Source: Eledone cirrhosa
Lineage: Eukaryota
DNA length: 64,000 nt
Direction of reading: 5' to 3'
Assembly (NCBI GenBank): GCA_964016885.1
Contig: OZ024749.1
Location: 41,850,001-41,914,000, forward strand
Shown: positions 58,101 through 61,100 of the stretch, piece after piece
How positions within the stretch are numbered: the first letter of the stretch is position 1
How the letters are laid out: the number at the start of each line of letters is the position of its first letter
Translations under genes and position numbers: made by a program
The notes under the pieces: model-generated
What the model saw: only the letters and a program-made list of their open reading frames with translations
The model's database searches: none
What the model was told of the DNA's origin: nothing

Positions 58101-61100
58101 TTATGATGATGATGATGATGATACTTGAATGTAAGCCAATGGGAATATAAACCAACCGCACTATTTTATGTCTGAGAAATGGGCAAACATCCAAACTTTA
58201 TTTACGTAGAATTTGAAGTTGGTGAAAATCATCAAAATATTGATCCTGAATATAGTTAAAAAGTGTCAATGAATTGTTTATACTTGCTGACTATAATTCT
58301 AATGAAATGCTTGATATTTCAATTAATGAAGTATTTAGAGGGATTTACCAAAATTATTATTTCAGTACTAAGATTAGTAACATAGGTTCTTATGTAAAAT
58401 TGTGTTGGAAGATTTTAATTTAAACAGGAACTTTTTAAAATGGATGGTTTTGTTTGATAGAATCAGGCTGGATTTGGCTGGTTTGGTATCCAAAGGGTTA
58501 AATAAGAACCCTTTAAAACAGGTGGTTTTGTTTCTTAGAACCAGAGCTGGTTTCAAGAGGGTTGGTATTAAGAAGGTTAAATAGTTTAACATATATTTTC
58601 CATGCTTGCATGGATTAAATGAGTTGTCACATTCTGAGGCTAGGCAGATCAGTCAGGTGACTGTGGGCATGGTTTCTATGGCTGTATGCCCTTATTAATG
58701 CCAACTACTTCGTGGCAGGATGGACAGGGTGTTTTATTACTACGCCACCACTACCACTGTACAGAGTGTAGGGAATGTATTGTTCAGTTTCCACGAAAAA
58801 TGTTAGATACAGTTAAATATGTTATGTGAAATGTTTACAGTTAAAGTTTCTGTGAAATGTTTACAGTTAAACAGTTTCTGAGAAATGTTTACAGTTAAAC
58901 AGTTTCTGAGAAATGTTTACAGTTAAACAGTTTCTGAGAAATGTTTACAGTTAAATAGTTTCTGTGAAATGTTTAGTTAAACAGTTTCTGTGAAATGTTT
59001 AGTTAAATAGTTTCTGAGAAATGTTTAGTTAAATAGTTTCTGAGAAATGTTTACAGTTAAATAGTTTCTGTGAAATGTTTACAGTTAAACAGTTTCTGAG
59101 AAATGTTTACAGTTAAACAGTTTCTGTGAAATGTTTTTCAGTTAACAATGTTTCAATGTAAAATGTGAATGTGCATGGCTCAGTGATTGGAACAATGTGG
59201 TGATGAGATCAATTCTCGGGCTGGGTGATGTGTTGTGTCCTTGAGCAAGACACTTTATTTCACATTGCTCCAGTTTACTCACCTGTAGAAATGAGTTGCG
59301 ATGTCACTGGTGCCAGGCTGTATTGGCCATTGCCTTTCCTTTGGACAACGTTGGTGGTGGGGGATGTTTATGCAGGTGTGACAAACCTCATATATTCTAG
59401 CCAGGGAAAAAAAGCAAAATGAATGTTTCACCTTCGAAACAGATGATTTAAAGAAGAAGAATGTAAAAAAATGTTCAATGAAATATATTTTGTAATCTTT
59501 AATCTAGATAGTTATTTATATGTGTAACTAAAACCACCCATTATAAACATATTAGTTCAATTGCTTCTAATCATCATCATTTTACGTCTGCTTTTCCCTG
59601 CTTGCAAGGGTGGGACGGGTCCTTTTCAGCACAGCATCTCTCCATTCGTCACGGTCCTTTGTCATCTCCTCTGTGAGCTTCAGCAATCTGACGTCAGCTC
59701 TCACTACCTCCGCTCATGTTTTTCATAGTCTTCCTCTACTGCGTCTTCCTTCCACCAGGATTGCTTGGCACTTCTTCACCCAGCGGTCATCTTTCATGTG
59801 CATCACATGGTCATACCAACACAGTCTTTTCTCCTGCACATTGAAACTAATTTTCTGAGAATTTTTTTATAGTTTTATTTATTTAGACAGGAAGAAGGGG
59901 TTGTGCCCTTAGACAATGACTTTGCAACTCATTTCTACAGCTGAGTAAACTGGAGCAATGTATAATATAATATATAATAGATATATATATGATATATATA
60001 TATATATATATATATATATATATATATGTATATATATCATCATCATCATCGTTTAACGTCCATCTTCCACGCTTGCATGGGTTTGGACGGGAGTTTTCCT
60101 ACTTGAGGCAAGAGTGGTTGTCTTGCTCGCATAGGACTGTCTGGTGGGTTTTCTACGGCTGGATGCCCTTACTAACACCAACCACGTTTACAGTGTGGAC
60201 TGGGAGGTTTTTACCGTGTTACCTACACGGCCACATTACAGCGGGGACTGTGTGTTTTTTTGTCGTGACACCTACACAACCTCATTTGTTTCGAACTGGA
60301 TGTTGTGGTACCAACATAACTTTACATTGAAAGTACAAAGTGAAACCTACTACTGACAGTAGTAGGTTTCACTTTGTACTTAGATAATATACTATATATA
60401 TATGTCTATCTATATATATCTACTAGCATTAAAGCCCGGCGTTGCTCGGGGTCAGTAAGTTACCAAAGTTAGGTTGCACCACCCATTTTATGGCGGCACT
60501 TTTTTGTCTGCAGGCACTGGGTGAATGAATTGCAGACCTGGACTGCCGAAGCAGGAGCTGCGCCAGCAGATGTAAGATGATGATGATGATGTATATGTAT
60601 ATATACATCATCATCATCAAGTGGTCGTGGAGGTGCCACAGTAAAAAAGCACCCAGCACTCACTGTAAATGAGGTTGGTGTTAGGAAGGGCATCCAGCTG
60701 TAGAAATCAAGCCAGAATCAGTTCCCGTCCCACCCTTGCAAGCAGGGAAAAGCGGACGTAAAAATGAGGATGATATATGTATATGTATGTATATAATATA
60801 ACATTCTGAAATGTAACAAAAAACAACAAAAAAGAAACGGATGCATCTATATATGATATATATACATATATAAGATGCAATTGCATTTGAAAAAGAAGAA
60901 AGATATTTCTACTGAAATATTTACTCATTAGACTGTATTTGTGATCTACAAACTCTCAAAACCCTTCCCCCAGCTACCTCCTTCCCCCTTTGTTGTGTCT
61001 GGGTTTTACCATTGGACTAAATCAGCTGTTTTTCTTGGAAATTTACTGAACTCTGACCCCCCCCCCCCTAATACATTAGTTTTTTATAAAACAATAAAAA

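Follow-up and report, generated by a model that had tools for sequence, protein, structure and literature searches.

A tandem array of STAT-type sites in a candidate STAT-responsive intron of a gp130/Domeless-family gene of the octopus Eledone cirrhosa

The DNA considered here, 64,000 nucleotides of Eledone cirrhosa contig OZ024749.1 (positions 41,850,001 to 41,914,000 of the forward strand, assembly GCA_964016885.1; hereafter the window, with all positions counted from its first letter), contains the 5' part of a cytokine-receptor-family gene, one intron of which holds a minisatellite built on a STAT-type motif. An earlier note on this DNA had interpreted the minisatellite, with its STAT and Forkhead sites, as a copy-number-tunable JAK/STAT autoregulatory enhancer in a cytokine-receptor gene. 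The single STAT-type sites elsewhere in the intron, rather than the repeat, provide the best evidence for STAT control, and the closest relatives of the gene look secreted, suggesting a different role for any feedback through this locus.

Four plus-strand coding exons of the gene (40081-40162, 57264-57545, 62205-62322 and 63598-63794) join in frame into 226 residues without a stop. The first lies in an exon at 40054-40162, with an ATG at 40081 opening a signal-peptide-like sequence, and is preceded by an AG acceptor, implying an upstream untranslated exon. The second encodes an Ig-like domain (66% identity to Octopus sinensis LOC115222134), the third opens the cytokine-homology region (82% identity to the same orthologue), and the fourth (73-78% identity) is the last before the gene leaves the window after about residue 226. 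Per-exon identity is 61-82% to the O. sinensis protein (P0001, 851 residues) and 57-83% to a protein of Argonauta hians (P0002, 850 residues), and 36-38% to the next relatives. A TTCYNRGAA site just before a TATA-like stretch and CpG-rich patch (25097-25400) marks a possible promoter of the gene.

That the host is a class I cytokine-receptor gene of the gp130/Domeless type, with an Ig domain, a cytokine-homology region and further FN3 domains, is supported, in agreement with the earlier note. A direct phmmer search of P0001 against the PDB returned fibronectin only, and the assignment is based instead on a family profile, the predicted fold and Atlas feature matches. The profile, built from 18 relatives, best matches gp130 (E 3e-57), followed by IL-12Rb2, OSMR and LIFR; the O. 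sinensis protein model (predicted local distance difference test, pLDDT, 68; predicted template-modelling score, pTM, 0.42) also best matches gp130 (E 2e-26); and the Atlas matches for the orthologue, which include CRLF1, EBI3 (IL-27 beta) and IL-12 p40, agree with both. The Ig exon matches Lep_receptor_Ig at E 0.043, below the cut-off. The window exon, P0001 and P0002 have other residues in place of the first cysteine pair and the C-x-W motif of the cytokine-homology region, both of which are present in the relatives P0010 and P0028. The WSxWS motif, at a position that falls outside the window, is degenerate (xxWS, residues 310-315) in both orthologues, and likewise in membrane-bound relatives. 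No second receptor paralogue was found within the window, either by tblastn with the 18 proteins or with the family profile.

The intron of interest (57546-62204, GT...AG) lies between the Ig-domain exon and the first exon of the cytokine-homology region. The flanking exons have AG/GT ends and splice in frame, bearing out the intronic location given in the earlier note. In the one haplotype covered, Tandem Repeats Finder places the minisatellite at 58808-59145 on the plus strand (period 28, 12.3 copies, 92% matches), with units of 26 or 28 bp arranged head to tail, within the unit length of at least 10 bp that defines variable number tandem repeat (VNTR) enhancers. Eleven units carry an intact TTCTG(A/T)GAA, at 58848, 58876, 58904, 58932, 58960, 58986, 59012, 59038, 59066, 59094 and 59122, the spacer base being A in six and T in five. 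The 5' edge consists of two degenerate unit copies, one with TTCCACGAA (58789-58797), a three-base-spacer (N3) site that does not fit TTCYNRGAA, and one in which the core is broken (TTATGTGAA, 58822-58830). This exact recount reproduces the figure of the earlier note, namely 11 sites together with TTCCACGAA at 58789. TGTTTAC, the FoxO core, occurs eight times in the array, after seven of the 11 intact cores at a gap of 1 bp and once in an edge unit, so that its presence in most units, as previously noted, holds. Neighbouring sites are spaced 28 bp start to start in seven of ten pairs, and 26 bp in three. The motif TTC-N3-GAA is indeed the consensus of the gamma-activated site (GAS) bound by STATs (PMC3564941); TTCYNRGAA is the STAT5 consensus (PMC4856970), from which the preference of an octopod STAT may differ, and invertebrate STATs cluster with STAT5/6 (PMC13203501).

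Three variant positions recur among the units in interleaved order: the A/T spacer base, an upstream C/T site and a 2-bp deletion, a pattern that would be expected from repeated unequal exchange. The A/T variant shifts sites into or out of TTCYNRGAA, while the deletion takes TGTTTAC out of three units, this motif being lost in four of the 11 in total. The earlier note had placed the variable position in the N3 spacer; the A/T spacer variant is real, but the C/T site and the deletion recur as well. Within the window there is no second copy of the array, only one solo relative of the unit at 61144. The array is touched only by open reading frames of 31-61 residues, and gives no Rfam match at the gathering threshold and no tRNA gene. 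A fold z-score of -4.7 for the array was rejected as evidence of structure because shuffling destroys the periodicity and the centroid structure is nearly unpaired. Also rejected was the whole-window excess of N3 sites (30 observed, 8.6 expected), which is mostly one unit tallied 12 times; copies of one unit amount to one event.

The evidence outside the array was obtained after removal of the array and all tandem repeats, leaving 3797 bases of the intron for comparison with 41496 bases elsewhere in the window. TTC-N3-GAA occurs six times in the intron and 12 times elsewhere (binomial p 0.0027), and five of the six intronic sites fit TTCYNRGAA, compared with three elsewhere (p 1.9e-4). Dinucleotide shuffles of the intron give expectations of 1.13 N3 sites (p 0.0013) and 0.31 TTCYNRGAA sites (p 0.0003). 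None of the eight other spacer lengths tested (0-2 and 4-8) is enriched in the intron (p 0.08-1), TTC-N3-GAA ranks first there among the 64 N3-spaced palindromes, and the preceding intron contains no such site in 7716 usable bases. All eight window matches to the extended TTTCYNRGAAA lie within the host intron, six of them in the array. Two sites are not independent, one (58532-58540, TTCYNRGAA) lying within an interspersed repeat copy and the other (61153) within the solo relative of the array unit; leaving both out gives a p of 0.03-0.04 for N3 and 0.004-0.01 for TTCYNRGAA. This enrichment, absent from the earlier note, favours its STAT theme for the intron. The intron also contains a plain N3 site at 59474-59482, which is not TTCYNRGAA, and a single TTCTGAGAA site at 59853-59861, identical over nine bases to the majority core of the array.

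The remaining sites fall into a cluster of five at 60907-61250, about 1.8 kb downstream of the array: N4 at 60907, N3 at 61032, 61153 and 61209 (all TTCYNRGAA), and N4 at 61241. It is the densest 350 bp outside the array, its DNA is not repeated elsewhere in the window, and three TTCYNRGAA sites within 200 bases did not occur in any of 150 whole-window shuffles. On its motif content, the cluster is a candidate core enhancer, and a better candidate than the array itself. The solo relative (61144-61163, plus strand) lies inside this cluster and holds the site at 61153; it is identical to the array unit at 18 of 20 bases, a match reached in one of 150 Markov simulations.

The fate of the receptor protein was examined through the two orthologues, since the window ends upstream of the relevant exons. 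P0001 and P0002 have neither a transmembrane helix nor a cytoplasmic tail: no hydrophobic stretch follows the N-terminus (best 19-residue mean hydropathy 1.4), and both stop about 20 residues past a cysteine that in relatives stands ahead of the membrane helix, sharing a short polar tail. Thirteen of 16 other relatives reach 1.9-3.6 after the signal peptide and possess a membrane helix, the other three being two short proteins and one further full ectodomain without a helix. The two orthologues thus look secreted, which does not fit the term 'autoregulatory' that the earlier note had used in the sense of Drosophila domeless (dome). Both are gene models, and P0002 may derive from P0001. Word-index searches for relatives of the window gene that are closer or carry a membrane anchor gave only P0001 and P0002, which is weak evidence. 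Separately, the 872-residue relative P0028 likewise ends after the cysteine that precedes the helix, and the several membrane-bound relatives suggest an expansion of the family.

Taken together, these observations are best accommodated by a STAT-responsive intron in which one site was later amplified by slippage, and which drives a probably secreted ectodomain, a reading that we advance tentatively, at somewhat less than an even chance of being right. Intron 57546-62204 would then make this octopod gene of the gp130/Domeless family responsive to STAT, with its likely core in the five-site cluster (60907-61250). The minisatellite would be a secondary addition, made when slippage or unequal exchange copied a near-palindromic STAT site, akin to the solo element at 61144, head to tail and supplied 11-12 additional docking sites for STAT. 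Given JAK-activated STAT and open chromatin, dimers would load mostly independently along the array, which would add to induction without being required for it. With a probably secreted ectodomain as the induced product, a feedback loop would more likely dampen or reshape signalling, as a decoy or soluble co-receptor, than amplify a signalling receptor. Soluble gp130 is an antagonist, and CRLF1, EBI3 and p40 are secreted agonist subunits.

Several points weigh on the other side. Only six of the 12 array sites (the 11 and that at 58789) fit TTCYNRGAA, and mouse GAS sites are occupied at any one time to at most about 10% (PMC3564941). The claim that TTC/GAA stays intact fails at 58822, where the core is broken, and in the intact units its sparing fits chance: the probability that no variant falls in the six core bases is 0.47 for three recurrent sites or 0.27 for five events, a comparison of low power from which no selection on the core emerges. 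TTC-N3-GAA is second, behind another motif, among all 576 spaced palindromes in the intron, and plain N3 sites cluster elsewhere too, numbering five and four in two of ten equal-sized blocks to the left of the intron (TTCYNRGAA at most two), making the plain-N3 p-values optimistic. The likeness of the array flanks to the solo region beyond the 20-bp match is not significant (p 0.06-0.17), only a 3-unit alignment reaching significance (p 0.01 and 0.04). Three 3n sites in the dome intron bind STAT92E in vitro and drive no mesodermal expression (PMC2556238). Finally, the gene runs past the end of the window before any region in which a membrane helix could be seen, and it may be a paralogue of P0001 and P0002.

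The strongest competitor is that all of this is chance, an ordinary minisatellite of a repeat-rich genome, with a hairpin-prone unit that resembles a STAT site by accident, among other sites that are AT-rich background in an intron exerting no STAT control; we regard this as unlikely, but it deserves to be taken seriously. Tandem repeats fill 18674 of the 64000 bases of the window. The array unit (one full unit being 58862-58889) is an imperfect palindrome with the STAT site at its centre and forms a hairpin at -3.7 kcal/mol; a palindrome with a 3-base loop has the geometry of a GAS site. Shuffled units contain TTC-N3-GAA in 1.3% and TTCYNRGAA in 0.35% of 200000 trials, close to the 1.0% and 0.42% of real 28-mers of the window. 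Among 65 non-overlapping window arrays of period at least 10, this array alone bears an N3 site; ten of the 65 are classed as sequence-complex, and one N3-bearing array among these would arise by chance in about 10% of cases (4% for TTCYNRGAA). A tandem repeat at 8706-8830 bears N4 sites, and block 11457-15453, inside a minus-strand gene, contains five plain TTC-N3-GAA sites and one more near the block edge, one of which fits TTCYNRGAA, providing a counter-example to enrichment of the plain motif. What chance explains less well is the TTCYNRGAA enrichment outside the array, which persists without the two non-independent sites, is restricted to the 3-base spacer, and is located in a gene of the cytokine-receptor family, for which clusters of this kind have precedents.

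A less probable alternative retains the cluster at 60907-61250 as a real STAT element and treats the array as an inert passenger, a stray copy amplified neutrally and lying in closed chromatin or lacking cofactor sites. The array variants are blind to the motifs, and the dome 3n sites are inactive without cofactor context (PMC2556238). Mouse STAT5A tetramers favour centre-to-centre spacings of about 10, 15, 20-21, 25-26 and 31-32 bp, so that the 28-bp spacing of seven of the ten pairs falls in a trough (PMC4990345). Most of the motif-rich tandem repeats that MORC3 restricts in human monocytes showed no effect on nearby genes (PMC13373173). On the other hand, reporters with four 3n sites are JAK/STAT-responsive in fly cells (PMC2556238), making it likely that 11 sites lying 2 kb from an active enhancer are bound at times, and the three pairs at 26 bp sit at a tetramer peak (PMC4990345). 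Because the trough spacing predominates, cooperative binding of STAT tetramers along the array is doubtful.

The model of the earlier note, in which the enhancer drives a membrane-bound signalling receptor in a positive autoregulatory loop, STAT and Forkhead act jointly and copy number sets the gain, fares worse, and we consider it very unlikely. The precedent that it invoked, feedback activation of dome through intronic STAT sites, is confirmed (PMC2556238), and a membrane helix is present in the majority of the other relatives. The co-occurrence of N3 and TGTTTAC in one shuffled unit is rare (3.5e-5), for a pair picked after the fact. However, the two relatives closest in per-exon identity possess neither membrane helix nor tail, and the four units without TGTTTAC are matched by its absence from the rest of the intron: no Forkhead core occurs there (0.95 expected), a relaxed motif shows 13 matches against 10.1 expected, and a partial TAAACA at 61145 is the only Forkhead-like recurrence beside a STAT site outside the array. 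The proposed Forkhead role thus finds no enrichment behind it, and at a distance of 1 bp from the STAT core, STAT and Forkhead proteins may even compete. Positive autoregulation of a signalling receptor is doubtful, since the core is not significantly spared, Forkhead sites are not enriched outside the array, the prevailing spacing is a trough, 3n sites of dome are inactive, and the orthologues lack a transmembrane segment. Least probable of all, in our estimation, is a negative array, in which the dense homotypic cluster recruits silencing or acts as a local STAT sink and holds the gene silent for as long as the repression lasts: in humans, MORC3 closes tandem repeats of as many as 61 homotypic motifs, among them a repressed IFNB1 enhancer with 45 PU.1 sites, but the clusters that this account names are of SPI, AP-1 and SP/KLF rather than STAT sites, and the effect is predicted for large (35x) and not small (5x) clusters, compared with 11-12 sites here (PMC13373173).

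Comparison with known systems helps to place the favoured STAT-responsive intron. In the dome-MESO/SLF2 enhancer (PMC2556238, PMC2877871), as here, 3n and 4n STAT sites are clustered within an intron of a gene for a gp130-like receptor, with five in 746 bp of the first intron in Drosophila (PMC2556238) and five in about 345 bp in the Eledone cluster. By contrast with dome, where the enhancer acts through 4n sites and a mesodermal cofactor (PMC2556238), 3n sites dominate here and the intron lies within the coding region; dome encodes a signalling receptor, the orthologues of this gene have no membrane helix, and no tandem repeat is mentioned as far as those accounts describe the enhancer. The dome precedent therefore lends support to intronic feedback as a concept, and cautions against inferring function from 3n motifs. 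The 10xSTAT92E-GFP reporter, derived from an intron of the negative regulator Socs36E, also contains tandemly multiplied STAT sites, but is engineered from five 441-bp fragments with two sites each and native flanks (PMC7920551), while the present array has a natural 28-bp unit with putative STAT sites. A natural parallel is IFNB1-MRE, a tandem repeat that forms a homotypic cluster of transcription factor sites near an immune signalling gene; it contains 45 PU.1 sites, is human, MORC3-repressed and of proven function, compared with 11-12 predicted STAT sites in a mollusc (PMC13373173). On present tests, the array is at best a STAT-site cluster, and is not classable as a VNTR enhancer or as a dome-type autoregulatory enhancer.

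For the protein, parallels are found in Eye transformer/Latran (Et/Lat), a short Dome relative and negative regulator whose intracellular partners are Dome, JAK and STAT and which is unable to bind ligand (PMC4751595), and in the soluble class I receptor chains of vertebrates, all being Dome or gp130 relatives that do not signal on their own. Unlike Et/Lat, the octopod orthologues retain the full tall ectodomain and end before the membrane. A bolder extension of the favoured reading, which we would call a long shot, is that octopods possess a secreted, full-length ectodomain of the Domeless/gp130 type that serves as a STAT-induced cytokine trap, and that in this lineage the heritable, variable length of the STAT-site minisatellite sets the gain of this negative feedback.

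The literature searched contains little on JAK/STAT signalling in cephalopods. In a search that mostly left subscription papers outside, no description was found of a STAT-site minisatellite or a STAT-site VNTR enhancer, although the supplement of PMC13373173 could include STAT cases; the same search found nothing on adjacent STAT92E-FoxO sites, octopus domeless or this gene. If true, the favoured reading would provide a candidate direct STAT target in octopus, a compact element usable as a reporter of the JAK/STAT pathway, and a natural setting in which to ask if amplifying STAT sites in tandem alters the strength of a cytokine response. An inert array would be an ordinary minisatellite like dozens of others in the window. 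The membrane-less receptor, conserved in two octopods and unannotated, may be the more lasting lead.

The remainder of the window contains further features. A probable PELP1/RIX1 gene (448-735 and 10160-10345, minus strand) lies head to head with the receptor gene; its matches to Pfam RIX1 (E 0.016) and to PELP1 as the top PDB entry (E 0.86) are each weak, and agree in order and identity. A CpG-rich patch at 21701-22000 may be its promoter. An abundant interspersed repeat carries TTC-N4-GAA (7228-11812, 58297, 62423 and 63880), once in tandem (8706-8830), an example of STAT-like motifs being dispersed by repeats in this genome. Other sequence-complex minisatellites, which contain no STAT N3 site, lie at 22282-22600 (40 bp x 8), 32360-32715 (20 bp x 19) and 47450-47619 (16 bp x 11). 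Broken frames resembling the reverse transcriptase of a long interspersed nuclear element (LINE) were recognized by eye at 29088-30044 on the minus strand, with no Pfam match above the cut-off. At 54009-54391, tandem units of 95-127 bp each contain an almost perfect inverted repeat, made of a fragment of a dispersed repeat and lying between AT tracts.

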